Below, piece by piece: positions 24,005 through 39,795 of a DNA stretch of 43,281 nt. The notes below the pieces were generated by a model that had not been told where the DNA came from, ran no database searches, and saw only the letters and a list, made by a program, of their open reading frames with translations. Every line of letters starts with the position of its first letter. Positions within the stretch are counted from its first letter, which is position 1. Made by a program: the position numbers and the translations under genes. The stretch spans positions 1 to 43,281 of the IMG/VR virus record IMGVR_UViG_3300028025_004089; one strand, given 5' to 3'. This DNA comes from a virus (Duplodnaviria > Caudoviricetes).

Positions 24005-25561
24005 GTGCAGATCATTGAAGACAAGGCACTGCTGTTCAGAACCCGTAACCCCGACAAGTACAGAATCATTCCCAAGCACAAGGTCATCCCTGTGCCGGGT
24101 GGTTTTGAGGTCGCGGTTTACTGGGGGCTGGACGAAGCAAGGGTGCTGCGCAATCTGGGGGTGAAGGACGTACCTTCTCCCATAATCAAACGATACAACT
24201 GGCCCGGCCGTTATAAGCCGATGGCCCACCAAGTGGAGACGGCAGCGTTTCTCACAATGAACCGCAGGGCGTTTGTGTTCAGCGAACCCGGCACCGGCAA
24301 GACGCTCAGCGCTTTGTGGGCAGCCGACTACCTGATGACGTTGGGCAAGGTCAGGCGTGTGTTGGTCCTGTGCCCTCTGTCGATCATGCACAGCGCATGG
24401 ATGGGAGACATCAACTCCAGCGTGATCCACCGCTCCGCTGTGATCGCCCACCACCCTAAAGCATCGCGGCGCATTGAGCTCATCCAGCACGACTACCAGA
24501 TCGTTATCGCCAACTACGAAGGTCTCAACCTGATTGCAGACGAGATCGTCAATGACGGGCGCTTTGATCTGGTGATTGTGGACGAGGCCAACGCCTACAA
24601 GATGCCGACCACGCAGCGCTGGAAGTCGCTTAACAAGATCATCGGCCCTGAGACATATCTGTGGATGATGACCGGAACTCCTGCGTCGCAGTCTCCCGTT
24701 GATGCGTACGGGCTGGCCAAGCTGGTCAACCCAGAGGGTGTGCCCAAGTTCTTCACGGCGTGGCGCGACAAGGTGATGACCAAGCTGACCATGTACAAGT
24801 GGGTGGCCAAGCCAGATGCCAAGGAGACGGTGTTCGAGGCGCTGCAACCAGCGATACGCTTTACCAAAGCGCAGTGTCTGGACCTGCCGCCAGTGATCAC
24901 GATGACGCGTGACGTGCCGCTTACACCCCAGCAGGCCAAGTATTACAACCTGCTCAAAGATCAGCTACTGTTTCAAGCGGCGGGGGAGACGATCAGCGCA
25001 GTCAATGCTGGTGTGGCTGTGAGCAAGCTCTTGCAGATCAGTTGCGGCGCTGCCTACACCGACGACAAGGAGGTGGTGGAGTTCGACGCCTCGCCTCGCT
25101 TGGCGGTACTGGAGGAGGTGCTCGAGGAAACTACCCGCAAGGTCATCATCTTCGCGCTGTTCACCAGCACCATCGAGGCCATCCACCGGCACCTGCTCAA
25201 GAAGAACATCAGCGCCGACATCATTGACGGCAGCGTCAGCCCGTCCAAACGGGGGCAGATCATCCACAGGTTCCAGAACGAGCCTGACCTACGGGTGCTG
25301 GTGATGCAGCCTGCTGCTTCTGCGCACGGCATCACGCTGACTGCTGCCGACACGGTTGTGTTCTACGGCCCCCTGATGAGCGTGGAGCAATACATCCAGT
25401 GCTGCGCCCGTGCTGACCGCAAGGGGCAGGACTCCGACAAGGTGACGGTGGTGCACATTCAGGGCTCCGCCATCGAGAAGCGCATGTTCAAGGCGTTGGA
25501 AGGGAAAGTTAGCGATAACTCACTTCTTACCGACATGTTCAAGTCAGAAATAAATTTTTAA
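24005..25561 (+). CDS. SNF2-family helicase
   Basis: PGTGKT, DEAN, MTGTP, GITLT and Q...RA-R-GQ motifs; GTG start with CCAAGGAG SD (track start 23660 is too early). Confidence 0.9.
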   Translation: MQIIEDKALLFRTRNPDKYRIIPKHKVIPVPGGFEVAVYWGLDEARVLRNLGVKDVPSPIIKRYNWPGRYKPMAHQVETAAFLTMNRRAFVFSEPGTGKTLSALWAADYLMTLGKVRRVLVLCPLSIMHSAWMGDINSSVIHRSAVIAHHPKASRRIELIQHDYQIVIANYEGLNLIADEIVNDGRFDLVIVDEANAYKMPTTQRWKSLNKIIGPETYLWMMTGTPASQSPVDAYGLAKLVNPEGVPKFFTAWRDKVMTKLTMYKWVAKPDAKETVFEALQPAIRFTKAQCLDLPPVITMTRDVPLTPQQAKYYNLLKDQLLFQAAGETISAVNAGVAVSKLLQISCGAAYTDDKEVVEFDASPRLAVLEEVLEETTRKVIIFALFTSTIEAIHRHLLKKNISADIIDGSVSPSKRGQIIHRFQNEPDLRVLVMQPAASAHGITLTAADTVVFYGPLMSVEQYIQCCARADRKGQDSDKVTVVHIQGSAIEKRMFKALEGKVSDNSLLTDMFKSEINF

Positions 25562-25568
25562 AAAGGAG

Positions 25569-25612
25569 TTGTGCAAGCCAAAAAACCCGTGTAAAGTGTC
25601 AAGCCTTAGACA
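25569..25612 (+). promoter_or_regulatory. Promoter with an operator-like palindrome over the start site (operator copy 3)
   Basis: TTGTGC (25569-25574)-17-TAAAGT (25592-25597); TGTCAAGCCTTAGACA at 25597-25612. Confidence 0.55.
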
Positions 25613-25639
25613 AACAAAACAGATTTTTAGGAGAAGCAA

Positions 25640-26044
25640 ATGTCAGAAGCAGCCATCCCCCTCGACCGACTTGCGAAGATTTATCGCAAAGTTCGGACAC
25701 AGATCGCCACCCTCACGCAAGAGTACGACACGAAAGTGGAAGAACTCAAAGCTGTGCAGGATGAAGTGGCCAACGCCATGAAGGACCAGATGAAGACCAT
25801 GGGGGTCACATCAGTCCGTACATCGGAAGGCACAGTCGTGCTTTCTGTCAGCACCCGCTACAACACGCAAGACTGGGACTCTTTCAAGAAGTTCGTGGTC
25901 GAGCATGACGCAGTGGACCTGCTGGAAAAGCGCATCGCCCAAGGCAACATGCGCCAATTCCTTGAAGAAAATCCGGGCGCTGTTCCGCCCGGTCTGAACT
26001 CGAGTTCCGAGTATTCAGTGTCAGTTCGTAAACCAACCAAGTGA
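25640..26044 (+). CDS. Conserved replication-module protein (coiled coil plus DW..F...LLEKRI...PPGLN)
   Basis: AGGAG SD, 134 aa. Confidence 0.8.
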   Translation: MSEAAIPLDRLAKIYRKVRTQIATLTQEYDTKVEELKAVQDEVANAMKDQMKTMGVTSVRTSEGTVVLSVSTRYNTQDWDSFKKFVVEHDAVDLLEKRIAQGNMRQFLEENPGAVPPGLNSSSEYSVSVRKPTK

Positions 26045-27039
26045 GTACCCAAATGAGCAACATCACAATGTTCAACCCTTCCCAAGTCCCCGCCTTCGCT
26101 CGCAATGCTGAGCTGTCCGAAACAACACTGGCTCTGGCTGGTGGCTCTGGTGCCTCTGGCGTCAAGCGTGTGTCGATCAAAGGTGGCGTGTTCCGCCTGA
26201 TGTCCGCAGGCAAAGAGATCGCCGCCATCGATGAGCGTCACTTGGACGTGATCATCGTCAAGGCTGCGCCCAAGGTCAGCCGTGTGTTCTACGCTGCCAG
26301 CTACGACAAAGACGCAGCCGCTGCCGCTCCTGACTGCACATCCGCTGACGGCGAGAAGCCCGACGCTGGTGTGAAGAACAAACAGTCTGCCACCTGTGCT
26401 CAGTGCGCACAGAACATCGCAGGCTCGGGCACCGGTCAAAGCCGTGCATGCCGCTACCAACAGCGTCTGGCTGTGGTGCTGGCCAACAACCCTGACGGTG
26501 ACGTGATGCAAGTCACACTGCCTGCTGCGTCTATCTTCGGCAAGGAAGAGGGTGGCAAGCGCCCATTGCAGGCATACGCCCGCTACATGGCTGCACAGAC
26601 CCCACCTGTCAACCTCGACACCATCGTAACCCGCATGAAGTTCGACACCAAGGCGGAGTCTCCCAAGCTGGTGTTTGAAGCTGCGCGTTGGTTGACCGAT
26701 GACGAGTACGCCTCCGCCCAAGAGCAGGCCAAGTCCAGCGATGCTGCCAAGGCAGTGTCGGCTACGCCCGCCGCGTTGGATGGTGCAGCCTCCGCCCGTG
26801 CCCCGTTGGCTCTGGAAGGTAAGCGCCCCGCAGCCGCTACCGTTGCTGCCTTGCCTGAGCAAGACGAGACTGAAGAAGACGCCCCAGCGCCAGCACCCAA
26901 GGCCAAGAAAGCCAAAGCTGCCCCAGTGGCGGACGAGGGCGACGAGCCAGAAGTGCGCAAGCCTGAAGCCAAAGAGACGGCTGTGCCTGCCAAGAAGTCC
27001 AAGCTGGCTGACATCGTGGCCGATTGGGACGACGAGTAA
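26041..27039 (+). CDS. Probable single-stranded DNA-binding/annealing protein
   Basis: Position in the replication module; Cys cluster (C...C..C...C); Ala/Pro/Lys/Glu low-complexity linker; acidic-aromatic tail WDDE; function inferred, start may be ATG 26053. Confidence 0.6.
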   Translation: MSTQMSNITMFNPSQVPAFARNAELSETTLALAGGSGASGVKRVSIKGGVFRLMSAGKEIAAIDERHLDVIIVKAAPKVSRVFYAASYDKDAAAAAPDCTSADGEKPDAGVKNKQSATCAQCAQNIAGSGTGQSRACRYQQRLAVVLANNPDGDVMQVTLPAASIFGKEEGGKRPLQAYARYMAAQTPPVNLDTIVTRMKFDTKAESPKLVFEAARWLTDDEYASAQEQAKSSDAAKAVSATPAALDGAASARAPLALEGKRPAAATVAALPEQDETEEDAPAPAPKAKKAKAAPVADEGDEPEVRKPEAKETAVPAKKSKLADIVADWDDE

Positions 27040-27047
27040 AAAGAATC

Positions 27048-27175
27048 GGGGGGAAAGCGGATGCTGTGCCAGAGTCTGGTCTATTGGTGACATGACTAAA
27101 GAGTTTCAAGGGCTGTCATGAGCAATGCTTGGAACTCCGTGAGTTCGAATCTCACCAGACGCAGCGAGTACCCCC
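27048..27175 (+). ncRNA. tRNA-mimicking structured RNA (not a functional tRNA)
   Basis: T arm GTGAG-TTCGAAT-CTCAC (27139-27155); D arm CCA-GAGTCTGGTCTAT-TGG (27069-27087); stem CATGAC/GTCATG; 10-bp pseudoknot 27101-27110/27128-27137; closing GGGGG/CCCCC stem. Confidence 0.7.
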
Positions 27176-27185
27176 ACCTAACACT

Positions 27186-27464
27186 ATGGCCTACTCACAA
27201 AAAATCATTGATGACGTGATGAAGACTCCCAAGTCTCTGGGCAACCAGCTTGGGCGTTGGGCTATCCATCTGGACTTTCCCGTCACGAAAATTGCCTACG
27301 CCCTTGGCGTTACACGACAGACCGTTTACAACTGGTTCAACGGATCAGAAGTCTTCGTCGCGTACCGCCACCGCGTGGAAACCCTTTTAACAATAATGCA
27401 GTCCTCTAACACAGCGGACGAAGCATGGAGAAGAATATGTCACGAGTACAACCTCAAACCCTGA
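27186..27464 (+). CDS. HTH (Cro/XRE-like) transcriptional regulator
   Basis: VTKIAYALGVTRQTVYNWF helix-turn-helix; start reassigned to ATG 27186. Confidence 0.85.
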   Translation: MAYSQKIIDDVMKTPKSLGNQLGRWAIHLDFPVTKIAYALGVTRQTVYNWFNGSEVFVAYRHRVETLLTIMQSSNTADEAWRRICHEYNLKP

Positions 27465-27589
27465 CCGACGAAGAACTGTTGCGGCACATCTACATTTACG
27501 GCTTCGACGACGTGCCGCCTGACTGGATTCGCCAACTGTGTGCCCGCTTCGCGGCCTTACTTGACCAAGCGCAAGACGACAACAAATAA
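27437..27589 (+). CDS. Small hypothetical protein (50 aa)
   Basis: GGAG SD; MSRVQPQTLTDEELLRH...; fills the gap before the primase. Confidence 0.65.
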   Translation: MSRVQPQTLTDEELLRHIYIYGFDDVPPDWIRQLCARFAALLDQAQDDNK

Positions 27590-27601
27590 GCAAGGACAGT
27601 T

Positions 27602-30502
27602 ATGACACCGCTGGAATTTTTAGCGGCGGTTCTGCCTGCGCCCAGTACCGGGATGTACTGCGTGGCGGAGCTATCGTCCATCAGGAAGGAGCACCAATAT
27701 GAGGAATCACTGGAAGACCTGCAAGCGCCCATAGAGGCTTGGCACGCAGCAGACAAAGACGTTTACTTCGCCCTGTCCACCTTCGCAGTGGCAGGTAAGC
27801 GCACAGCAGACAACGCCCGGTTCATCCGTTCGTTGTTCATCGACATGGACGGGTACGCATCCAAGAAAGATGCCGCTACAGCACTGGGCGCTTTCCTTGA
27901 GAAGACAGGCATGGCCGCGTTGGGCAACCCCTACATCGTTGGTTCAGGTGGCGGCTTGCACGTTTACTGGCCGTTCGAGGAAGCCGTGGACATAGTGTCG
28001 TGGAAACCCGTGGCCGAGAACTTCAAGCGCTTGTGCAAACAAGAGAGCATGGCGATCGACATGACCGTGACGGCAGATGCCGCCCGTGTCTTGCGTGTGC
28101 CCGGCACGACCAACTTCAAGAAGAAGTACGCGACGCCGCGCCCCGTGCGGCTACTGGCTGCTGGGGATACGTTCAGCTTTGACGCGCTGTCCAAGCTGAT
28201 CAACGACCGACTGACCGCGCCGTCATACGAGGCACCAAAGAACGTGTTCGAGTTGCCGGGCATTCGCCCATCCACAGCGCCCAGCGCCACAAGCGTCAAG
28301 CTGTTTGAGAACAACTCGACCAAGTTCAAAACGATCTGGCTGGCAACGCAGAGCGGTAATGGGTGCGGGCAGTTGGCCAACTACGTTGAGAATGCGTCCG
28401 AGGACGGCATGGAGCCGATCTGGCGTGGGCTACTGTCGATCACCCAGAAGTGTGATGACGGCAACAAGGCTGCGGCATGGTTGAGCCAGATGCACCCGTA
28501 CCCACCGGAGCGCATGCACGAGAAGCTGCGCAGCATCAAGGGCCCATACCCCTGCATGAAGTTCGACTCGGAGAACCCCGGCATCTGCACAAGCTGTAAG
28601 CACTGGGGCAAGATCACCAACCCGCTGGCGCTGGGCCGTGAAGTCCGTGTGAACACAGAAGAAAAAGAAATCCCTATCAACATTCCTTCTTCCAGCGATG
28701 CGCTGCCAACCGAAAAGCGGACAGTCAAGCGCCCACCAGCGCCAAAAGGTTTTGCGTACGGCGACAAAGGCGGCGTCTACTTTGAGCGCATGGTCGAGCA
28801 GGACGATGGCACTAAGGTCAGGAAGATGGTGCCCATCCTCCCATACGACATGTTCGTGGTGGACATCCTGAATACCCAGAACGATCACTCGGTGCACATG
28901 GTGGCGTTGCGGCCGGAAGGCCCCGTCGATTTAATAATCCCACAGAAAGTTGTAGTGTCAAATATGGATACAGTCAAAGCGCTTGCGCAACAAAACATCA
29001 TCGCCAGCTTCGGCCAAGGCAACGACAAGAACTTATTCGACTACGTGCGGGCTTGCGTTGAGGAAGCCAGTGCCAACAAGGTGGCCGTCAAAGTCCCCGC
29101 CAGCTACGGCTGGCAAGACGATGGTACGTACGTCTTCGCAGGGCGCATCTTCTCCAAGGACAGACCCGCCTTCACGCTGCCCATGCCGGGACTGGAGAAC
29201 TTGCAATCATTTACAGAGCCTGCTGGCTCGGTCGAGAACTGGCGCAAGTTCATGAAGCTGCTGGTCGCCAAGAAGATGTACAAGCACCTTGCCGTGGTAC
29301 TTGCCGGTGCCGGAGCGCCGCTCATGCGTTACACCAAGCTGTTCGGCATGACGTTCCACTGCGCTAGTACCGAATCTGGTACGGGCAAGTCGTTGGCTTT
29401 GGAAGCCGCTGCCTCTGTCTGGGGTCACCCGACACGTTACCGCACAGGCAAGAGCACATCACCTGTGGCCATGCAGCAGCGTCTGGGCTTGTTGCAAAAC
29501 CACCCACTCATTACGGACGAGCTGACCAGCAAGAACCGCGACAACTTTGAGTGGCTTCCTGAGTTCCTGCTGGACATGACGCAGGGTAAAGGCAAGGAGC
29601 GTATGGAGGCTGGCTCCAACAAAGAGCGCTTGAACTTGTCTACATGGGCAACCAATGCGTTGCTTTCTTCCAACACTCACATGATCGACATCTTGACCGG
29701 AGGCCGCAAGCATGCTGCGGAAGGTGAGCTGCGCCGCCTGTTGGAGATTCTGATGGAAGACCCACTGTCGTGGGAGCCGCACGAAATCGAGATCATCAAG
29801 TCCTTACAAGACAACTACGGCGGTGCTGGCATCATGATGATCGAGTACATGGTCAACAACGAAGAGAAGTTGGAGCCGCTGGTGACCAGCACGGTGACAC
29901 GCATGTATCAAGAGTTCAACGCCACCAACGACGAGCGTTTCTGGATGGCGGGCATTGGTGCAAGCGTTGCCGCAGGCATCATCTGGAGTAACCAGTACGC
30001 GGGCATCATTGACTTGCCCATGAAAGAAATCATCAAGGCTTTCCAAGATGCTGTGAAGTACATGCGCAAGGCCATGAAGGCAGGGGCCCGCGCTGCGGAA
30101 GACGTACTGAACGCCTACACCGGTGAGAACTACGGTAAGTTTGTGGTGGTCAAGCGCAGCGATGGCAGCTTGCTGGCGCAGCTTGGCGGCAACCAAGAGA
30201 TCGACCAGTCGATCACCCGCACCAGCGTGGCAGGGCGCATTGAGCATGAGATCACGCCGGGCTACGTGGACTACTACATCGAAGAGACGCTGCTCAAAGC
30301 GTACTGCGCCACCATGAGCTTCGGGTACGCAGCGTTCATCAAGCAGTTGTCCGAGACCGAGGGGTTCTTTGTCGAGCGTATGAAGAAGGACATGACCTCC
30401 AAAACCAAAGGCCCACCAATGCGCGTGAACTCGTTGAAGATTCGCCGTCGTTCAGGAGAATGGGATGCTGAAGCGTTACCGCTTCCCTTGGCAGCAGCTT
30501 GA
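27602..30502 (+). CDS. Primase-helicase (RepB/AEP-like primase, Cys cluster, DUF927-type P-loop domain)
   Basis: FIDMD, SGGGLHVYW, D-ARVLRVPGT-N primase motifs; C...C..C; Walker A SGTGKS and Walker B ITDE. Confidence 0.88.
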   Translation: MTPLEFLAAVLPAPSTGMYCVAELSSIRKEHQYEESLEDLQAPIEAWHAADKDVYFALSTFAVAGKRTADNARFIRSLFIDMDGYASKKDAATALGAFLEKTGMAALGNPYIVGSGGGLHVYWPFEEAVDIVSWKPVAENFKRLCKQESMAIDMTVTADAARVLRVPGTTNFKKKYATPRPVRLLAAGDTFSFDALSKLINDRLTAPSYEAPKNVFELPGIRPSTAPSATSVKLFENNSTKFKTIWLATQSGNGCGQLANYVENASEDGMEPIWRGLLSITQKCDDGNKAAAWLSQMHPYPPERMHEKLRSIKGPYPCMKFDSENPGICTSCKHWGKITNPLALGREVRVNTEEKEIPINIPSSSDALPTEKRTVKRPPAPKGFAYGDKGGVYFERMVEQDDGTKVRKMVPILPYDMFVVDILNTQNDHSVHMVALRPEGPVDLIIPQKVVVSNMDTVKALAQQNIIASFGQGNDKNLFDYVRACVEEASANKVAVKVPASYGWQDDGTYVFAGRIFSKDRPAFTLPMPGLENLQSFTEPAGSVENWRKFMKLLVAKKMYKHLAVVLAGAGAPLMRYTKLFGMTFHCASTESGTGKSLALEAAASVWGHPTRYRTGKSTSPVAMQQRLGLLQNHPLITDELTSKNRDNFEWLPEFLLDMTQGKGKERMEAGSNKERLNLSTWATNALLSSNTHMIDILTGGRKHAAEGELRRLLEILMEDPLSWEPHEIEIIKSLQDNYGGAGIMMIEYMVNNEEKLEPLVTSTVTRMYQEFNATNDERFWMAGIGASVAAGIIWSNQYAGIIDLPMKEIIKAFQDAVKYMRKAMKAGARAAEDVLNAYTGENYGKFVVVKRSDGSLLAQLGGNQEIDQSITRTSVAGRIEHEITPGYVDYYIEETLLKAYCATMSFGYAAFIKQLSETEGFFVERMKKDMTSKTKGPPMRVNSLKIRRRSGEWDAEALPLPLAAA

Positions 30503-30683
30503 GAAGGGGCAGGCATTCTTCGTGCCTTGCCTTGACTTTAAACCGATGATTGAGCACGGACTGAAACAAGCGGTCTCAGCCCGTGTTCTGAATGCCCGGG
30601 CCGTCCCGGGCATCTATGGCGGTGCGTTTGGGGTTATGTTTTACCGCCCTGCACCCTATCTTCGATCGCCCGCTTCGTCTTGA
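30465..30683 (+). CDS. Small hypothetical protein (FPW..LE-GQ-FFVP motif)
   Basis: AGGAG SD; last plus-strand gene, overlapping the convergent giant gene. Confidence 0.7.
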   Translation: MLKRYRFPWQQLEKGQAFFVPCLDFKPMIEHGLKQAVSARVLNARAVPGIYGGAFGVMFYRPAPYLRSPASS

Positions 30684-33600
30684 GGAAAGCATCGGCCCGG
30701 TCCTGCTTGGCCTTCTCCAACGCGTCCAGTCGGATACGCTTTTCTTGCGCGTTCAAGTCGGTGCGCTCCTGTGTGCGGCGGATGTCTTCGTTGATGCGGC
30801 CCACCACTTGGCGGTACTGCCCTGCAACGGACGACAGCGCCAGCTCAGCTTGGTTGGCATCGCGGAACTCCATGGCCTCTTCCCGGCGACCTTCCTTAAT
30901 CATCTTGTTGAGCGTGTTGCGTGTCTGCTCGGCTTCTTTGGCTTCGCGGAACACCACGTCGGAGTCACCACCGCCGTACTTCTTCTGAAACGCAGTGCCA
31001 ACCAAAGGCAAGTCGGACGCACGGCTTTCAGGCTTCTCGCCCTTGCCTTCACGCTCAAACAACCCGTTAGCGGCAGCAACAGCGGCCAGCGGCAGCACGC
31101 CAAAATACCCGCGCACAATGTGCTCGATCTGGATAGGCGACAAGATTGGAACAGCCTTGCTCATCTGCTTGGCCAGCTCCGTTGTAGTGGCAAGGTAGCG
31201 CTCCTCTGTGTTCATGCCCTGCAAACGCAAAGACTCAACAGGACCGCCGGTCAGGAAGTTCTTGTTGGTCCACACCTCAAGCGCAGGCTTGGCAATCTGA
31301 GGGATGCCCATGGATGAGTAGCCGGGGATTGAACCCAAGAACAAGTCCCGAATAGCCTGCCACTGCGCTTTGCCGTCGGTCTCGGCACGCATGCTGTCCA
31401 CAGCCGCCACAGCCAACGAGAAGAAGTAACCTGCTTCAAACGGGATTGGCAGCTTCAGCGGCTCGTCCACGCCGGGGATCGGCATGAAGAAGTTGGAGTA
31501 CTTGTCCCGTGGGCGGGCGTTACGGAAGGTCTCGTCGTCTTCCATGGCCAAAGCGTACGCCATACCGGTGAAAGTTAACAGCAGCGCGTTGTTGTAGAAC
31601 TTGCGCTTGATTTGCTGCTGCTCCTCAAACGGCATGTTGCCTCGTGCGGCTTTGACCAACACGTTCAGGCCCTGAATCTGCGCGTTGAAGAACGGGATCA
31701 AACGGCTGGCGTATTGCAGCGTTGGCGACAGTCCGCGCTTGTAGAAGTTCATTGACTCCATCGTGGCCATGTCGGCCTCGACTTCGGACAGCCCTTGGGC
31801 CTCCGCGTTCTTGAGCACTAGCGCCAGTGTGGCGGCATCGGCACGCATCGCGTACCGGTCAGCGGCAGCAAACACTTTCTCCAGTGCGCCTTGGTCTTTG
31901 CCGCTGGCAAGCTGGAGCGCCATCTTCTTCATGTCAGACATATCGCCTGCAAAGATGTTGGACTGAATCAAACCCTTTTCAATCAGCTTGGCTTGCATGT
32001 CGCTGCTACCAGTGCTCATACGCAGATACTCAGCGCCTGCCTTGAAGACAGAGGAGAAAGCGTTGGACTCCAAACCGCCGGTAAACGACGCCGCCATTGG
32101 CTCGCGCAGCAACTTGCGGGCAATGTACAAGGGGGTGCGGGTCACACCGGCACGCAGCCAATCGGCAGCAATGCCGCCAAGTTTAAAGAACCCGGGCAGC
32201 GCAAGGCTTGCGCCTTCCATGCTCTGCACGACCAGCTCCGCAGGGATGCCTTCGGCAAGCGTGCCTTTGGTGTTCACCACGATGTGGCGCTTGCCGTCGT
32301 CGTCTGGTTTGCTTGGATCGGGCTCTTGGTAGAAGCGAATGACTTTGGCATCGTCAGGACCAAAACCGGGTTTGATCGCCATCAAGTTCGAAGGCTTGCC
32401 TGTCTTTGGATCAGCTGGCCCCCTGCCTTTACCCAGCGCTTGCAGGCCGTAGGCAACACTCTTGGCGGCGTTGTTGGTCAGCGCCATATCCGTCAGCAGC
32501 AAAGTGTTGCGCTGGATGGCTTCGTTCAATGGCAGTAACTTTGTGTCGCCGCCTTTGAGTTCTGCAAGGTATGGCTGACGGCGGATGTCGCCCACGTTGA
32601 ATGTGACGTTATTGTTGAAGACCAAGTCGGCGTTGCCGTCTTTGTCTACACGGTAGAAGGGGACGTAGTCGCCTTCCTTAAGCAAGTCAGCCGCTTCTTT
32701 TTTGGAGATGCGCCCGGTGCTGGCAAGGAACTCGATCATGCCCTTGTTGTACGCGCTGTACTTGCGGCGCACGTTCTCCAGCGCAGCTTTCAAGGCAGGG
32801 TTGGCATCGGCTGCGGCCAAGGCAGCGTCCAAGTCCGACTGCTTCAGCTCCATCGCACCCAAGTCTAGCTTGGGTAAGCCCTTGTTGTTGGCACGAACTG
32901 CAACCAGATATGTCTGCGCAAGGTCTGTCTTCAGTTGTGGGTTGTCCACAGGGATGTCGGCAATAGCGTCAAACACTTCCCGAGCGCTGTTCTGGTTGGA
33001 GCTGCGGTAGCCGACAAGACCTTTCTCATCCTTGTATGCCACCAACGGGCCGCTGTTCATCACAGTGAACATCTGCGCCATCTTCTGCTCAGCCTTGCGC
33101 ACGTGATACATAGCCTGCGTGAAGAGCGTGTCGTCGCCAAACTTCAAGGTCTCGCGCAAACCAGCACGCATGTCCACAGCCTGCATCTCGGCCTGCAACG
33201 CAAGGTTGCTCCCCGCCTTTTCGCGCAGAGTCTTGGGCTGTGCAATGATCTTCTTCGACAGCGCTTCCAATGCGTCAGCTGGAGCCGTAGCTGCTTTGGA
33301 ACGGTATGTAATATTACCGCTACCCATGGAGAACGTGCCACGATTACCAATTGCGGATTTAATCTGGTTGGGTTCAAAAACCACAAACTCCGTTTCAGGG
33401 TCAGTCAGCGAATCGGTAGCCCCCGCCAACACAATACGCCCGTCATATCCCGCAGCTTTCAACGCTTTTTGAATGTACGCGTTGCGGTCCCCTGATAGCA
33501 CCGCAAGCCGCTCAATTGACGGGATCGCAGCGACCTCGTACTCTGCCGTAGCCGTGTCATACAGCTTGGAAAAACCCGGCAACTCTTTTCGCAAAGTCGC

Positions 33601-36600
33601 AACATCTTCTGCCGTCAATTTACCCATAAAAGGGTTTTCTATGCGCAAGAACACAGGCATGATGTTGGGCGTGTCGTCTCCGGCAAACCCCTGCGCCGTG
33701 CCCGCATCGCCAAAGTAGAAACCGTTGCCGTGATACTTCCCGCTCACAGCTTTAGCGGTGTCGGAAAAAGTGTCAAAGTCCGCGCCGGTGCCGTGATAAA
33801 CCACCAGTGGCTTGCCTTGCGCGTCTACCACTTTGCTGTTGCCAAACCAGTTTTTAAACGCTTTTGTGTCTACGGGCCTGCCCTCAACGACAAACCTGCG
33901 GGCGTTGGCAATGATCTGGTTGACCTGTGCGTCAGTGACGGTATCCTTGAATCCCAAGGTGTCGCGTATCCACTTCTTCACAGTGTCGTAAATCTTGCGC
34001 ATGGCGCTGCGGGTATCAGGCGCGTTGGGGTCCAGCTCGGCTTGCTCAGCCAGCGCTTCTTCCACGGCGGTGTTCTGATCCAACGACTTGATCTGCTTCA
34101 TCTTGGCGTTGGCAGCTTTGCGAATAGCTGCGTTGCCGTTGTAGATGTCGGCCATAGTCTTGGCGTAGGTGTCGCCAAGGATAGACTGCAAGCCAAAGTG
34201 ACCGGCAATTTCATGCACCGTGGTCAGGATCACATCGTTGACGCTGCGCAAGTTGGATGCAACCAAGTACACCTTCTTGCTCTTTGGGTCATACAGTCCG
34301 GGAATCTTGCCGGTCATGTTGTCGCGCTCTGCCTGACTGCGGATACGCGCAGGCAGCCCCGTCTCGTCAGCCACAACAATCGTCTGCGGTTTGTTTACCC
34401 AACCCGCAGTCAGTGTATCAAAGGCCTTTTGCACCTGAGCCACGCTCATGCTGGGGCCGGTTGTCTTGGAGACACGGTACAGGGCGTCTTGATCAAACTC
34501 ATCAACGACGTCGGAAATACCCATATCGAAACCGCTGACCGTAGTGCCACCTTCAACAGCAGGTGCACGAAGGGATGCGTACTCCAGCATTTCCGCCTGC
34601 ATCTTCGTGCCTTCGGCTTTAGCCAACAAGCGTTGTTTGATGCCCAGCTCTTCCCGAATAGTGGCAAGCCGGTCACGGGTAACCACCGGTATTCTTAATG
34701 GGTCTTTGGCTAAATCAACAGACGCTTGCAAAGCGTCGCGTTCGCTTTCTAGCGTTGCTATTTGGCTACGGTACATCGACACGTTGGAATCCACTGCTGC
34801 CAAAACTGCTGCACGTGTTTTAACGTCTTGGTCGGCAAACTCGTCGGCCAAATCTGTCGGTGTTTTTGCAGCAATCAAGCGCTCAGCAAATGCGTTGGCA
34901 TCTTTCACAGCCTGCGTGGTTGTCGGCAACGCAACGGTGCGAGTCTCCACGATCGGGCGACGTGATACGCCTTTGTCGGCCTTGGTCTCGGCAGTGCCTG
35001 CGCGGAGTTTGGCAGGGGCACTGGACTCGACCTTGGTCGCCTGCGACACAGCGCCAACTGTTTTAGGAGCCAAGCGATCTACTTCTGCCTGCTGCGTGTT
35101 GACCTTCTCTTGCAGGTCACGAATCTTCTCGGCCCGTTCATCTTGTTTGGCTTTACCACGTGGCTCCTTTGCAGCCTTCATGGCAGCAAGCTGGCCTTCC
35201 ATAGCGCTCAGGCGGTCCTTCGCAAAGCCGTAAGCCTGCACACGCTCAACCTCGGCATCTATCTGCTCTTGCTCCGCAACACCGGCCTTCTTACCTTTGA
35301 CTGTGGTCTGCCCTGTCTTTTTGTCGGTGCGCAAGTCTTTTGTAGCAGCACCTGTGGCAACATCGACACGCTTGATGCCCAGTCGGTTTGAGCGCACCCC
35401 AGTCAGTACCTGCAACTCGCGCTTGTACCGCGCCAATGTTTTGGCCCGGTCCTTGATGGTTTCTGCGGACAGGGGTTTACCTGTCTTGGGGCTGACGGTT
35501 TGCTTCGCCAACTCCTCTTGGTTCTTGATGTTGGCTACCAGCTTGTCGATGCGCTTATCAAGGTCCTGCGTGACTTCAGGATCGCCTGACAACAGCACAC
35601 GGGCACGATTCTCGGCCACCAACTTGCGTGTCTTGGCCTTTTCGTAGTTACCCAAAGACGACTGCAACGCGGACACTCTGTCGTTTCCGTCTTTTATTTT
35701 TTTGTTTAGTGCGGCTACACGGTCCGGGGATGTTTCACCCACCAGCTGTTCTTCAGCAACGGCAACTTGAATCTGCATCTCTTCGATGCCACGCTCAATG
35801 TCCTTGATGTCCGCATCAATTCGGTCTGAATCTTTGGTGGACGCACGCAGCAACTCCAGCATCTCTTGGCGCTTGGAAAAGTCAATACGCTGACCGGGCA
35901 AAGCTGCCAGTGCAGCAGTGCTTGCCTGAAATGCCTCCAGCTTTTGCTTGTCTTCGGTTGTCTTGGCATCGCGCTCGGCTTTGGACAGCGGCTCAATCTT
36001 GATACTCTCAAGCGCTGCAGCAAGCGGGGCTTCTTGTTTGGCCGTTGTTGGCTGTAAAACCTGCTGCGCACGGCCCAGTTGTTTTTCCGCAGTCTGGATG
36101 TCACGCTCAACGCCTGCAATCTGGGCGTCAATGTCGCCTGCTTCTTTATCGACCACGCCTTTGATTGACAACGCAGCAGCCAGCTCTTGCTGCGCCTGTT
36201 TGATTTCTTTTTGGTTTTTGCGGCTACGCTTCTGCGTGGCAGCGGCCTGCTCCAACGCCAACCCGGCGTTCAGTAAAGCCTGCGCGTCTTGATCCAAAAC
36301 TTTCTCTTCGGCTTGCAACTGCATCTGCAAGTTTAGATCGGCGTTTAAAAACGCCAAGATTGTGTCATCAGCGCCAGCTTTGCGGCTGGCCGCAATCTGT
36401 TTCTCAATTGCTGTGATGATGCCGCGACGCGCTGTACGCAGCGCAGAAAAGTTTTGTTTTGTTACAGGTTGCTCAACGGCAGTAGCGTACGCGTTCTTGG
36501 CGGTGGCCGTCTTCTGCGCTGCTGCAACCAGTTCGGTATCCGTGCTTTGGAAAGCAGCAAGGTTGTCGGCAATCTTCTGGCCAATGTCCGCAACAGTTTG

Positions 36601-39600
36601 CGCAGTAAAGTCAAACTGCTGGCGAGCCTGCATGTACTCTGTTTGCAAGTCCAACAATTCAGCGTCGAGGCGGTCGTAGATTTTCTTCAGGTTTGCTTCA
36701 GCCGTGTTGAGCAAGTCCTTGGCCGTGTTGGACTCAACGCCGCGCTGCGCTTGCAGTGCTTTCTTGCGCTCTTCTAAGTTGGCAAGCTGCTTGGTGATGC
36801 CGTCGATACGCTTTTGGAACAGCCCCAGACGGGCGTGCATGCGACTGGCGGTGTCTTTGCCCATGCCCAACGCCTGACGCACAAGTTTGAGCGCGTCACT
36901 GGCCAAGTATTTCTGGAACTCTGCGGCTGTTGCAAACGCGGTGGACTTCTTTGCCGGGGCTTGCATCTCACCGGGAGCACCAAAAGTTGCTTTGCCGCCT
37001 TCTACAGTTGTCGGAGATGCGCCTCGTACCGTTTTAGGCATGAACCGTCCGGGCAGCTCTTGCTGGCCACTCTCTTGCAGTTTGCCTTCTTCCAATCGCG
37101 CCAGCTCATTTTGCAAGTCGCGGGTCATCTCGGGGGATGGGCGGCCTGTGGTTGTTGCGCGGTTAAGCCACTCGCCCGCCATGTTGAGGCGTTCTGGGCT
37201 GGCGCTGAATGCTTTGAGATTGTCGGCAATCTGCTCCAGTACCGACAGGGTTTGCGGGTCGTAGCGCTCACGTTGCGCAAAGGCGCGATCCAGTTGGCCG
37301 CGCAACATGTCGGCACTGGTTGTTTTGGGTGTGGCAACCTTTGTAGCGGTCTCACCACGTTCTGTGCCGCCGCGCCACTTCTGGCTGATGGCGTCAAGCC
37401 GAGCGTTGGTGTATGTCAGCACTTCAGGGGTTGCCCCGTACCGTGCAAGGGTGCCGAGCTCGCTTCGTACGTCCTGTTCAATCTCAGTCAGGGTTTCGGG
37501 GCGTAGGTCAGGGCGAGCAGAGCGAATCTCGTCAACTATGCTGGCAGCTACAGCCTCTTGTGCGCCTTCTTCTTTGTTGGCCACCTTTGTGAGCGCGGCT
37601 TGCCGTGCTGCTTCTGCCTCACGCTTGGCTTCCAGCGATGTTGGGAACTGGCCGAGTTGTTCTTGAATGCCTGCTGTTTCTTGGCCAAGTCCACCAATAG
37701 TGGATTCCGATGCGCGGTCTTGCAGGTCCCGAATCTGTTCTGTTAGATCACGAATTGTTTCGCGGTACTGTGCACCGCCTTGTACGTTCCGTTGCGCATA
37801 AGCAATCTCCAGCTGGCGCTGCAAGTCAGCCAACTTCTGCCCCACATTCCTGCGATCCGTTACGCCTGCAGCTTGGCCAACACGCTGTTCACCAAAGAGT
37901 TCTCCCTGCTGAATAGCTTCCCGAGGCATGGCCGCTTGGCGCTCTGTAAAGGCAATGTCCGAGTCGGTCACGCCTTGACGGCGGTCGGTGTCCAGCGCCT
38001 CGGCCTGCTCCATGAAAGCAGCCATAGGGTCGGTGGTGGGCTTGCCGACGGTCTGCGCTTGAAGTTCCGCCTGACGTGCAGCCAGCTCTTCTTTACCCAT
38101 TGCCTTGAGGCGTTGGGCCACTTCTTTACGGATCAGGTTGCTCTCACTGGATGACAGACCGGGCAGCGGTGTGCGGGTCTCAATTACCAACGAGGCCTTG
38201 TACGGGTCTTGCAGCAGGTAGTCAACGTAGTCTTGCCCTGACGGCTCATACATCTGGGTACGGGCCAGCTCCATGCGCTCGGCGGCATACGCGGCAGGCA
38301 CTGCGGCAACGCGGGCGCTCTCTGCTTCTTCGGCTTTACGGCGCTCAACATTGGGCACCAACGGGTCTTGGAACGCAAGGCCCGACTCTTCGTACGTCAG
38401 GTCTTCTGCGGGCGTTGTTGTTTTGCGGTCACGCACTTCACCCGTACGCTCCAGCATGTAGTCCATAGGAGACATACCTGCCACACGCTCTTGCTCCAGC
38501 GCCTGCTGGTACAGGCCGCTTTGAATTAAACGGTTTTTCTCAGGGGCCAGCGCATCCCGCTCTGCTGCATTTTTCTTCAGTTGCGCTTGTATTTCTTTGT
38601 TGTGCGCTTTGTCTTCAGCTTCGGTCAGCGAGTCTTTGGAAACACTACGAACTTGCTTTTGCAAGTCCAGCTTCTCTTGCTCAAGGGTCTTAAGCTGGTT
38701 GGCGATCTGCAACGCATATTCAGGCGTTTGCTTTTCAGCTGCTTCTTTCTCAGCGGTAATGCGTTCTTGCTCAGCGGCTTCTTTGGCTGCCACGTTGCGT
38801 TCTTCCCTATCAGCTTTTGCTGCCTGTGACTTGGCTCCGCTGCGCTCGACGGCACGACCAATGGGAGCAAGAGTGCCGCCTAGTACTGCGCCTCCGATGA
38901 AGCTGTCGATGTACTCTTTGCGGGCGTCTGCGTCTGTGATGTTCAACCCAGCTTGCAAGCGCTCCAGCACCTGTTGCGTAGCTTCGGTCACGCCTTCCCG
39001 TCCTGCGGTTACGCCTGTCTTAGCGGTGTAGTCCAAGACGGTTTTGCCCAGCGTCTGGTTGGCAAGAGCCCGCGCTTGCTCGGTTGTCAGCTTGGAGCCC
39101 ACGGAGCCGAACAGTTTGCCAATACCGGGAACAAGCGCCATGGCTGCAGTGTCAAGCAGTGCTTGCGGAACGGCTGCGGCCGCAGCTTTACCGAGGCTGG
39201 CCTGCTCAAGAGTCTTGCCGGTATCTACCTGAGCGCCAAGGTTGGAAGCCGTAAACTGCCCTGCGGACGCAGCCCCTGCGCCCAGCAAACCCAAGCCCGC
39301 AGCAACCGGCACCGATACTGGCGCAGCCAAAGCGGCAAGACCTGCAGCAGCAGGGAGGGCCATGGACGGCAGCGATCCGCCAAGAAGTTCTCGGAACTTC
39401 AGGAACGGAGATTCAGCAAAACTGTCTTCGGTGGGGGTGAAGCGTGCGGCAGCTTTGGCTTGCGCGGCTTCGTATTCTTTCTGCGCTTCGGCCTCGCTCT
39501 TGAGGCCCAGTTTGCCTTTTAGCAGCTCGGCCTGTCCACCCAAACGGGTAAGCCCCGCAGAGAACGCAGCTTTACCGCCCGTGGTGTCTTGCTTGGGACC

Positions 39601-39726
39601 TGCTGCTACAGGTGCCCCGAACGCGTCGGGGTACATCTGCTTGGCTACAGACAGTGCCTGTTCCTTACTCTCGCCCTCTTTGACAGGAAAGAAAGCACCG
39701 TTTGGGAGTTGGATTTTGTCAGCCAT
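30634..39726 (-). CDS. Giant polyvalent internal virion/ejection protein (coiled coils, zincin-like domain, ADP-ribosyltransferase-like domain, LPD38-like C-terminus)
   Basis: ~3,030 aa; HEIAGHFGL near 34190-34215; FKNWFGNSKVVD...VYHGT...GFYF...EFVVFEPNQIKS at 33331-33870; C-terminal IPFFNA-IQG, LPIPFEAG and SPIQIEH-VRGYFG motifs; ATG 39726 chosen. Confidence 0.85.
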   Translation of the reverse strand: MADKIQLPNGAFFPVKEGESKEQALSVAKQMYPDAFGAPVAAGPKQDTTGGKAAFSAGLTRLGGQAELLKGKLGLKSEAEAQKEYEAAQAKAAARFTPTEDSFAESPFLKFRELLGGSLPSMALPAAAGLAALAAPVSVPVAAGLGLLGAGAASAGQFTASNLGAQVDTGKTLEQASLGKAAAAAVPQALLDTAAMALVPGIGKLFGSVGSKLTTEQARALANQTLGKTVLDYTAKTGVTAGREGVTEATQQVLERLQAGLNITDADARKEYIDSFIGGAVLGGTLAPIGRAVERSGAKSQAAKADREERNVAAKEAAEQERITAEKEAAEKQTPEYALQIANQLKTLEQEKLDLQKQVRSVSKDSLTEAEDKAHNKEIQAQLKKNAAERDALAPEKNRLIQSGLYQQALEQERVAGMSPMDYMLERTGEVRDRKTTTPAEDLTYEESGLAFQDPLVPNVERRKAEEAESARVAAVPAAYAAERMELARTQMYEPSGQDYVDYLLQDPYKASLVIETRTPLPGLSSSESNLIRKEVAQRLKAMGKEELAARQAELQAQTVGKPTTDPMAAFMEQAEALDTDRRQGVTDSDIAFTERQAAMPREAIQQGELFGEQRVGQAAGVTDRRNVGQKLADLQRQLEIAYAQRNVQGGAQYRETIRDLTEQIRDLQDRASESTIGGLGQETAGIQEQLGQFPTSLEAKREAEAARQAALTKVANKEEGAQEAVAASIVDEIRSARPDLRPETLTEIEQDVRSELGTLARYGATPEVLTYTNARLDAISQKWRGGTERGETATKVATPKTTSADMLRGQLDRAFAQRERYDPQTLSVLEQIADNLKAFSASPERLNMAGEWLNRATTTGRPSPEMTRDLQNELARLEEGKLQESGQQELPGRFMPKTVRGASPTTVEGGKATFGAPGEMQAPAKKSTAFATAAEFQKYLASDALKLVRQALGMGKDTASRMHARLGLFQKRIDGITKQLANLEERKKALQAQRGVESNTAKDLLNTAEANLKKIYDRLDAELLDLQTEYMQARQQFDFTAQTVADIGQKIADNLAAFQSTDTELVAAAQKTATAKNAYATAVEQPVTKQNFSALRTARRGIITAIEKQIAASRKAGADDTILAFLNADLNLQMQLQAEEKVLDQDAQALLNAGLALEQAAATQKRSRKNQKEIKQAQQELAAALSIKGVVDKEAGDIDAQIAGVERDIQTAEKQLGRAQQVLQPTTAKQEAPLAAALESIKIEPLSKAERDAKTTEDKQKLEAFQASTAALAALPGQRIDFSKRQEMLELLRASTKDSDRIDADIKDIERGIEEMQIQVAVAEEQLVGETSPDRVAALNKKIKDGNDRVSALQSSLGNYEKAKTRKLVAENRARVLLSGDPEVTQDLDKRIDKLVANIKNQEELAKQTVSPKTGKPLSAETIKDRAKTLARYKRELQVLTGVRSNRLGIKRVDVATGAATKDLRTDKKTGQTTVKGKKAGVAEQEQIDAEVERVQAYGFAKDRLSAMEGQLAAMKAAKEPRGKAKQDERAEKIRDLQEKVNTQQAEVDRLAPKTVGAVSQATKVESSAPAKLRAGTAETKADKGVSRRPIVETRTVALPTTTQAVKDANAFAERLIAAKTPTDLADEFADQDVKTRAAVLAAVDSNVSMYRSQIATLESERDALQASVDLAKDPLRIPVVTRDRLATIREELGIKQRLLAKAEGTKMQAEMLEYASLRAPAVEGGTTVSGFDMGISDVVDEFDQDALYRVSKTTGPSMSVAQVQKAFDTLTAGWVNKPQTIVVADETGLPARIRSQAERDNMTGKIPGLYDPKSKKVYLVASNLRSVNDVILTTVHEIAGHFGLQSILGDTYAKTMADIYNGNAAIRKAANAKMKQIKSLDQNTAVEEALAEQAELDPNAPDTRSAMRKIYDTVKKWIRDTLGFKDTVTDAQVNQIIANARRFVVEGRPVDTKAFKNWFGNSKVVDAQGKPLVVYHGTGADFDTFSDTAKAVSGKYHGNGFYFGDAGTAQGFAGDDTPNIMPVFLRIENPFMGKLTAEDVATLRKELPGFSKLYDTATAEYEVAAIPSIERLAVLSGDRNAYIQKALKAAGYDGRIVLAGATDSLTDPETEFVVFEPNQIKSAIGNRGTFSMGSGNITYRSKAATAPADALEALSKKIIAQPKTLREKAGSNLALQAEMQAVDMRAGLRETLKFGDDTLFTQAMYHVRKAEQKMAQMFTVMNSGPLVAYKDEKGLVGYRSSNQNSAREVFDAIADIPVDNPQLKTDLAQTYLVAVRANNKGLPKLDLGAMELKQSDLDAALAAADANPALKAALENVRRKYSAYNKGMIEFLASTGRISKKEAADLLKEGDYVPFYRVDKDGNADLVFNNNVTFNVGDIRRQPYLAELKGGDTKLLPLNEAIQRNTLLLTDMALTNNAAKSVAYGLQALGKGRGPADPKTGKPSNLMAIKPGFGPDDAKVIRFYQEPDPSKPDDDGKRHIVVNTKGTLAEGIPAELVVQSMEGASLALPGFFKLGGIAADWLRAGVTRTPLYIARKLLREPMAASFTGGLESNAFSSVFKAGAEYLRMSTGSSDMQAKLIEKGLIQSNIFAGDMSDMKKMALQLASGKDQGALEKVFAAADRYAMRADAATLALVLKNAEAQGLSEVEADMATMESMNFYKRGLSPTLQYASRLIPFFNAQIQGLNVLVKAARGNMPFEEQQQIKRKFYNNALLLTFTGMAYALAMEDDETFRNARPRDKYSNFFMPIPGVDEPLKLPIPFEAGYFFSLAVAAVDSMRAETDGKAQWQAIRDLFLGSIPGYSSMGIPQIAKPALEVWTNKNFLTGGPVESLRLQGMNTEERYLATTTELAKQMSKAVPILSPIQIEHIVRGYFGVLPLAAVAAANGLFEREGKGEKPESRASDLPLVGTAFQKKYGGGDSDVVFREAKEAEQTRNTLNKMIKEGRREEAMEFRDANQAELALSSVAGQYRQVVGRINEDIRRTQERTDLNAQEKRIRLDALEKAKQDRADAFLKTKRAIEDRVQGGKT

Positions 39727-39795
39727 AGCAGTTCTCAAATTGTGATCGGGTGGCGCGACCCCGAATGTTTAAGCGCCTGCCTATTATGGCAAAGA

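Follow-up and report, generated by a model that had tools for sequence, protein, structure and literature searches.

The question raised by this locus is what kind of RNA is encoded in the narrow gap between two phage genes, where the landmarks of a tRNA appear without an anticodon arm. The window, that is, the whole stretch of DNA that was analyzed, is a 43,281-base virus record (IMG/VR IMGVR_UViG_3300028025_004089) that is 67% complete and in which the packaging and the replication genes lie on opposite strands. The element (27048..27175, +) starts 8 nt after the stop codon of a gene for a 328-aa protein (26053..27039, +), which the initial annotation described as SSB-like; this was not confirmed, as the gene gave no named PHROG, Pfam or PDB match and the AlphaFold model of the protein had a pLDDT of 34, and the name reflects the acidic C-terminal tail and the position only. 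Downstream lies an HTH-like gene for 92 aa (27186..27464, +), the ATG of which is 10 nt past the stem of the element and is not preceded by an SD sequence; it gave a weak Pfam HTH_23 match (E 4e-4, below the cut-off) and is treated here simply as a neighbour. No promoter-like site was found in 25400-27800, which is compatible with read-through transcription, though of small value as proof. The first codons of the HTH-like gene (27190-27196) are complementary over 5 nt to the loop-E 3′ strand of the element (27166-27170), probably by chance. Elsewhere in the window, an ORF of 3,034 codons (30634-39738, −) has an unnamed PHROG family as its sole match.

ARAGORN produced no call in the window, nor any with the intron search switched on at normal thresholds, and only at 90% of the threshold was a pseudo tRNA-Leu call obtained. 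Rfam was likewise silent, both for the element (E ≤ 10) and for the window as a whole (E ≤ 1). The initial annotation had expected no call or a pseudo call, and a known Rfam family would have counted against its reading. All the tRNA landmarks that it named were found by inspection of the sequence, and on this basis the D and T arms appear to be those of the tRNA family (RF00005). U8 (27067) and G9 are followed by a class II, Ser-like D arm (the whole at 27067..27087, +) with a D stem at 27069-71/27085-87, A14 at 27073, G15 at 27074 and GG at 27078-79, and C48 (27138) directly precedes the T arm (together 27138..27155, +), the stem of which (27139-43/27151-55) closes the loop UUCGAAU. An anticodon stem with a 7-nt loop is absent. 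A 7-bp acceptor followed by N73-CCA is likewise absent from the window but is present or nearly so in the relatives L145, L158 and L188/L428.

The tRNA-Ser-like core comprises 90 nt (27067-27156) and is mounted on a stem, hereafter the carrier. The 5′ strand of the carrier (27048..27066, +) consists of the G-C base, the GAA strand of a loop-E motif (27053-56), 2 bp, an inner loop (27059-63) and one side of an acceptor-like part of 3 bp (27064-66/27156-58), and its 3′ strand (27156..27175, +) contributes AGUA (27167-70) to the loop-E motif and C5 to the base. The base stem thus has 5 G-C pairs (27048-52/27171-75), and next to it GAA is juxtaposed with AGUA (27053-55/27167-70). The element had been described as having no CCA; this holds at the end of the T arm but not after the base stem, where a conserved A-C-C tail (27176..27178, +) follows, an R-CC sequence comparable with tRNA positions 73-75 and a predicted RNase P anchor and CCA-addition site.

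In the place of the anticodon arm, a 13-nt single strand (27088..27100, +) follows the D arm and contains UGA, the 5′ strand of helix S1 (27091-96) and a 4-nt U-A-N-A linker, and its middle 6 nt pair with the entire loop of a long hairpin arm (27101..27137, +) that stops directly at C48. This long arm is built of helix P2 (10 bp, 27101-10/27128-37), a G.G or U-A pair, an AAU bulge, helix P3 (3 bp) and the 6-nt loop (27115-20), which is at the same time the 3′ strand of S1 (6 bp, 27091-96/27115-20). The initial annotation had recognized a 6-bp anticodon-arm stem and a 10-bp pseudoknot helix; both helices were recovered, while its reading of S1 as the arm was not, and the conserved P3 (27112-14/27121-23, GCY/RGC, then the AAU bulge) had been overlooked. 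The nested fold with P2 and P3 as the long arm was calculated at −36.1 kcal/mol, vs. −27.8 kcal/mol for S1 as an anticodon stem. Being 8 kcal/mol better, the P2+P3 hairpin is taken as the primary nested arm, with the S1 5′ strand docking on its 6-nt loop.

The core resembles class II tRNA-Ser of phages. Positions 27135-27156, a 22-nt region covering the T arm, match annotated phage tRNA-Ser genes exactly, the D arm, compared with two phage tRNA-Ser genes, is similar to theirs, and a long arm precedes C48 in both; therefore, descent from a class II tRNA-Ser is likely from sequence. The element differs from these tRNAs in having no anticodon stem-loop, a long arm of 14 bp with the AAU bulge and a paired loop, and an acceptor that is not fixed. 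Such likeness would also be left by a decayed or intron-containing tRNA-Ser, a reading in keeping with the pseudo tRNA-Leu call at the lowered threshold and with the T arm that is identical to that of tRNA-Ser genes. Since the nested fold was only moderately better than shuffles (z = −2.3), the case for a conserved structure rests on the comparison with relatives.

With only the T loop and the carrier 3′ strand as the query, 22 stretches were obtained, and the core was present at a fixed length in 20 of them, the remaining two holding another tRNA-like insert with a short hairpin. The UGA, U-A-N-A, AG/CU, GCY/RGC and AAU motifs were kept in these 20 loci, although the query specified none of them. 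Core-anchored patterns yielded 28 distinct cores at the spacing of the window; the alignment of 28 left out L145, which is one base from the window, and added L201. Over these 28 homologues, 95.9% of the 784 cells of the pseudoknot alignment were paired and 20 of the 28 pairs changed on both sides, while none of 500 shuffles reached the observed value and slid controls gave at most 7 pairs. By helix, covariation was found for all 6 pairs of S1, 8 of 11 of P2, all 3 of the D stem (both sides changing in each), 1 of 3 of P3 and 2 of 5 of the T stem. As such counts can be inflated by kinship, the S1 strand types were counted separately: 12 different 5′ strands occurred, and 13 of the 15 combinations were fully paired, vs. 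27 of 198 cross-combinations. Consistently, a contig from an RNA library (X5) carried 10 changes, all compensatory and all within S1 and P3. The later patterns fix UGA, GCY, RGCAAU and C48, so that the invariance of these in the alignment is partly due to selection, but the 20 loci from the T-loop and carrier query lack this bias and keep them as well.

The initial annotation had held that a decayed tRNA would show no covariation in the pseudoknot; the pseudoknot covaries, all six S1 pairs changing on both sides. The fixed length and the compensatory changes in all five helices speak against a decayed tRNA, and neither the silence of the intron search at normal thresholds nor the lack of a U33-type loop fits a decayed or intron-containing one, so that we regard such an origin of the present structure as extremely improbable.

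One pattern search returned 53 matches, 51 of them true, and with L148 and L188 the family amounts to about 53 IMG/VR contigs. L580 and L612 were discarded as chance pattern matches. A covariance model of the core was run over 72 of 119 and 100 of 120 loci from two loose gap patterns, which return mostly chance matches, and distant members were found at 32-64 bits (L188, L428, L415, L155, L165, L154 and L172); because ordinary tRNAs reach 34 bits on this model, L172, L154 and L165 were included by motif and not by score. S1 had 4-6 bp in 13 of the 14 parsed members and was not found in L415. A scan of 3 of 64 parts of a metagenome collection gave 4 true members among 120 stretches, and BLAST gave no match for L165 against cultured phages or for L158 against E. 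coli genomes. L172, L188/L428 and L415 have an additional hairpin within the D arm or immediately after it, which suggests that the scaffold tolerates further insertions. Separately, L155, L165 and L154, from different temperate phages, share a conserved non-coding element 3′ of the core that gave no Rfam match at cut-off. A different tRNA-like RNA lies in a tRNA array of L190 (585-691, −), with G3.U70, an encoded CCA and an extended nested anticodon arm; against the tmRNA model, its match covers the tRNA-like ends (35.5 bits, E 4.9e-11).

The core and the loop-E stem had been presented as one unit, but each module was found without the other. The first 89 nt of the core are identical in L576/L145, where the acceptor is a plain 7-bp helix and the upstream gene belongs to an unrelated cluster, one member of which matches a gp2.5-like family; conversely, the carrier holds about 80 clusters of inserts. 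Among 33 distinct core contexts, the upstream ORFs fell into several non-homologous groups and the downstream genes differed. Core copies also sit on plain 10-11-bp stems within tandem arrays of different small modules (L193, L197 and L157). Distant members occupy tRNA-type sites in temperate phages. Of their contexts, four of the five examined lie before or among packaging genes and one after a Q-like antiterminator; the records of two distant members were classed as proviruses. In L158, the core follows two tRNA-Gly calls with a 2-nt spacer. That the structure is real and that core and carrier are modular can be taken as virtually certain. The flanks of L193, L197, L157, L139 and L152 contain tandem arrays with a second constant-stem module carrying variable inserts; a few bases separate this module from the core or the loop-E carrier, with which it alternates, and the arrangement resembles a polycistronic pre-tRNA.

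The acceptor ends of these copies bear on whether the RNA is charged. In stand-alone members, an acceptor of 7-8 bp precedes G-CC, U-CCA or A-CC (L158, L188/L428 and L201, respectively), and across the family the acceptor varies from 3 bp plus the carrier to 7, 8 or 10-15 bp, with G, U or A as the discriminator. SerRS ignores the anticodon, and the RNA could be aminoacylated, for example by SerRS, and then enter the ribosome or bind EF-Tu like the tRNA-like domain of tmRNA; the Ser-type D and T arms, the long arm, the 7-bp acceptor with G73 of L158 and the encoded CCA of L188/L428 would agree with this. The variable acceptor length and discriminator, however, argue against a fixed aminoacylation identity and place the conserved function in the elbow and the pseudoknot, and neither a tag ORF nor a tmRNA call was obtained. 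Charging is thus improbable.

The carrier was searched with a 17-base pattern from its 5′ strand in 10 of 64 parts of the viral collection; 120 loci were found, and the collection as a whole is estimated to hold about 810 such stretches. By eye, the matching 3′ strand was present in 117 of the 120 loci, and 3 lacked it under a strict pattern. The inserts were 103 distinct sequences of 22-89 nt in 80 clusters (by shared 9-mers), 11 of which sequences contained a T-loop-like string and one of which was the core of the window. In loci found via the insert, the base-stem sequences differed yet paired right beside the GAA/AGUA loop, supporting the loop-E register of the initial annotation; 14 of 44 rows of this comparison (CAAC/GAGTA) were antisense matches inside the HTH gene and were disregarded. 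By sequence, AGUA opposite GAA between helices would constitute a loop E/bulged-G motif, and AGUA/GAA is one of the four motif sequences of the sarcin-ricin/bulged-G motif, its strands facing each other as here (PMC1865062). In the element, the motif lies at the carrier base and not under a GAGA tetraloop, so the likeness is of a structural motif only and not of a copy of the ribosomal loop. The inner loop of the carrier is dispensable, being replaced in some copies by a plain helix of about equal length.

The carrier started at a median of 8 nt past a stop codon. An acidic-aromatic tail ended 37 of 100 ORFs upstream of carriers vs. 9 of 387 controls, and 21 of 61 upstream-ORF fragments, taken from these 100 with most near-duplicates left out, matched SSB or annealing-protein families. 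The carrier was single-copy in the window and in 4 of 5 other records, the fifth having no carrier, and a stricter two-arm pattern in 185,579 bacterial and archaeal genomes found 4 short MAG contigs only. A host search gave a best polymerase match of 31%. Betaproteobacterial hosts are faintly suggested by L030, where a Betaproteobacteria-1 RNA (RF02932, 101 bits; 18-135, −) follows a same-strand carrier copy at a distance of about 270 nt. The carrier also bears further tRNA-like inserts, L028, L075, L136, L142 (about 98 nt) and L085, which have a D/T elbow with a short hairpin for the anticodon arm; L028 scored 27.7 bits on the tRNA model, below the cut-off. In L596, two loop-E carriers with different stems and inserts stand in tandem, 7 nt apart.

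Processing by RNase P or RNase Z had been suggested for the element, and the sequence around the carrier makes it plausible. Of 112 carrier copies, 95 have R-CC after the G-C stem, whereas at a control position ten bases downstream only 2 do; when the stem was defined more strictly, the count was 76 of 111. These are not independent events, since carriers share ancestry. A pyrimidine preceded the stem in 97 of 112 copies. According to PMC11143913, bacterial RNase P RNA pairs with N73, C74 and C75, and the enzyme cuts hairpin model substrates; R-CC without the last A may therefore be what RNase P would need, and a helix followed by R-CC, with G at +1 and a pyrimidine at −1, has the look of an RNase P substrate. 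The same paper describes a measure of 12 bp from the T loop. In the element, the distance from the T loop to the R-CC end is about 20 bp and not 12, so that the T-loop measure would place the cut at 27060 and R-CC would place it at 27048. Overall, release of the element as a discrete, stable RNA is fairly probable.

A search of RNA-library runs returned 24 runs with small shares, and 8 of the 24 were examined. In five of the 8, from five studies, a contig covered the whole element or a homologue (X1, X4, X13, X5 and X8), contigs that may derive from DNA, 4 of the 5 extending past both element ends. X4 is a single 152-nt contig that begins at the 5′ end of the stem, a break that can also be an assembly branch, and in X16, X17 and X18 the core was not covered.

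The slot that the element occupies was surveyed in the 80 closest relatives of the HTH gene. A structured insert stood upstream in 45, a plain UUCG hairpin in 20 and neither in 15, the core was present in only 1 of the 80, and an SD-like string in none. The initial annotation had considered that the element recruits ribosomes to the HTH gene, much as an IRES would, from the ATG 10 nt past the stem and the missing SD. As no relative has an SD whatever lies upstream, the missing SD is a property of the gene and not of the element; 79 of the 80 relatives do without the core, and elsewhere the core precedes many unrelated genes at distances of 11 to over 200 nt. Ribosome recruitment has accordingly been set aside as most improbable. 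R-CC after the closing stem was found strictly in 36 of the 45 insert alleles and in none of the 20 plain hairpins; counting the outermost C-G pair as N-1/N73 adds 8 further alleles, and one of the 45 was misparsed. Other uncatalogued structured RNAs occupy the same slot (L494-L573), including an L527/L532 type of about 110 nt, L566, L546, L542, L562, L559 and L567; nearly all of them end in a stem and R-CC, and none of the representatives scanned matched Rfam. One slot insert occurs on a loop-E carrier (L541) and also on a plain stem (L546, L550 and L570).

The slot also bears on the possibility that the element acts in cis, the carrier being a cut site or an exonuclease barrier between genes and the insert only aiding its recognition. 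Its tight position past the stop codon, the R-CC tail, the plain hairpin at the same slot in 20 of the 80 relatives and the lack of a promoter-like site in 25400-27800 are what a processing or stability element would show. On the other hand, a processing mark would have no need of a pseudoknot whose three helices are maintained through compensatory substitutions, and the core is also found off the carrier and at other kinds of sites. The single copy in each genome also contrasts with a repeated processing signal, and 15 of the 80 relatives lack any such element upstream of the HTH gene. A cis role thus seems rather unlikely, though it deserves weight.

Among known RNAs, the layout fits neither YrlA nor tmRNA, as the initial annotation had stated, failing the membership tests of both. 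Like the element, YrlA is an RNA of two modules, a conserved stem and a non-decoding D/T elbow mimic, that occurs in phages, and one member is cut by RNase P and gains CCA (Chen et al. 2014, PMC4201824). The element differs in that it lacks the GNCGAA motif that YrlA has near its 5′ end, in that its D arm precedes its T arm and its ends are open, the T and D arms of YrlA being separated by a closed acceptor stem-loop, and in its pseudoknot, a feature unmentioned in the text of that paper. A Ro60/TROVE gene was present in none of 5 genomes (4 at least 90% complete, the window record 67%). With tmRNA (RF00023), the element shares a T arm and an acceptor-like end without an anticodon, and pseudoknotted RNA in place of the anticodon arm, but a D stem is present, the length is about 130 nt, and both a tag ORF and a fixed 7-bp acceptor of the alanine type with CCA are lacking. 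T4 RNA C and D and P1 C4 are small stable phage RNAs matured by tRNA enzymes; the element has no Rfam match and no evidence of homology to link it to them, and we know of no exchangeable inserts on one carrier for these RNAs. Some of its features may also resemble the pistol ribozyme, the ZTP riboswitch and CsrA sites.

The allo-tRNAs are likewise Ser-like irregular tRNAs, some in phages and some probably unused in translation (Mukai et al., PMC5389517), but their anticodon arm is retained and their branches are of the 8/4 or 9/3 type, while the element has a 5-bp T stem and no anticodon loop; the word "pseudoknot" does not occur in the text of that paper. Theta ribozymes are small pseudoknotted RNAs linked to phage tRNAs, with a nested double pseudoknot at the tRNA 3′ end (PMC10879173), whereas the element has a single pseudoknot in the tRNA body. 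The motif strings were not found in the literature searched, and topic searches returned no such RNA; the carrier may be among the unnamed candidates of Fremin et al. (2023, PMC10690425) and Weinberg et al. (2017, PMC5737381). Overall, it is well supported that the element represents a new architecture of tRNA mimic, one that travels as cargo of a phage small-RNA cassette not yet catalogued.

What the cassette does was considered on the same comparisons. The pseudoknot domain might be the effector, as a protein or metabolite aptamer or a small ribozyme, with the D/T elbow as a scaffold for processing and stability. The junction bases are conserved while the helices vary (20 of 22 loci), acceptor length and discriminator vary freely, and on other carriers the elbow of a tRNA is combined with another insert (L028, L075, L136 and L142), all of which an effector domain would explain; against it, the domain was never found without a T arm in the loci retrieved, a biased sample, no Rfam riboswitch or ribozyme matched, and the topology is not HDV-like. 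An effector role of this kind is an unlikely account.

A trans-acting role of the element, as an uncharged, non-decoding tRNA mimic for a host protein, is the most likely of the readings considered, although it falls short of being probable in itself. Carrier and core would be co-transcribed with the upstream gene, RNase P would cut 5′ of G27048, guided by R-CC, and 3′ trimming and CCA addition would follow. The RNA would then form the tRNA-like elbow and a compact, loop-hiding pseudoknot domain and be bound by a host protein that recognises the elbow or the long-arm side instead of the acceptor end; a defence or stress factor that targets tRNAs is the most plausible candidate. An anticodon nuclease as the target of such a decoy, which had been among the initial suggestions, appears doubtful on this analysis, because there is no anticodon loop to recognise and because, in a known case of tRNA counter-defence, rescue from retron-Eco7 required a tRNA with the right anticodon (PMC11555353).

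Slot turnover, movement between lineages and structural constraint together would fit an accessory gene under host pressure. We tentatively propose, as the fullest version of the trans-acting decoy, that freshwater phages possess an RNA-only accessory-gene system, in which a carrier mimicking a tRNA end may be placed behind a highly expressed replication gene, host tRNA-maturation enzymes may release any of dozens of swappable structured RNAs from it, and the core would be an anticodon-less decoy, armoured by its pseudoknot, that blocks a tRNA-targeting defence or stress protein.

The architecture was not found in Rfam or in the literature searched, its comparative support is unusually clean, and it is invisible to standard annotation. 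The element also provides a handle on a larger pool of phage small RNAs, dozens of them, that are missing from the catalogues and replace one another at a single slot. Because compensatory variants and empty alleles of this short RNA occur in nature, its structure, processing and partner can each be tested cheaply. If the decoy reading is true, the element would do at the RNA level what anti-defence proteins do, and would be a naturally occurring equivalent of the engineered tRNA scaffold. If these small RNAs act in trans, the accessory functions of phages would include a sizeable class of RNAs that protein-centred screens have missed.
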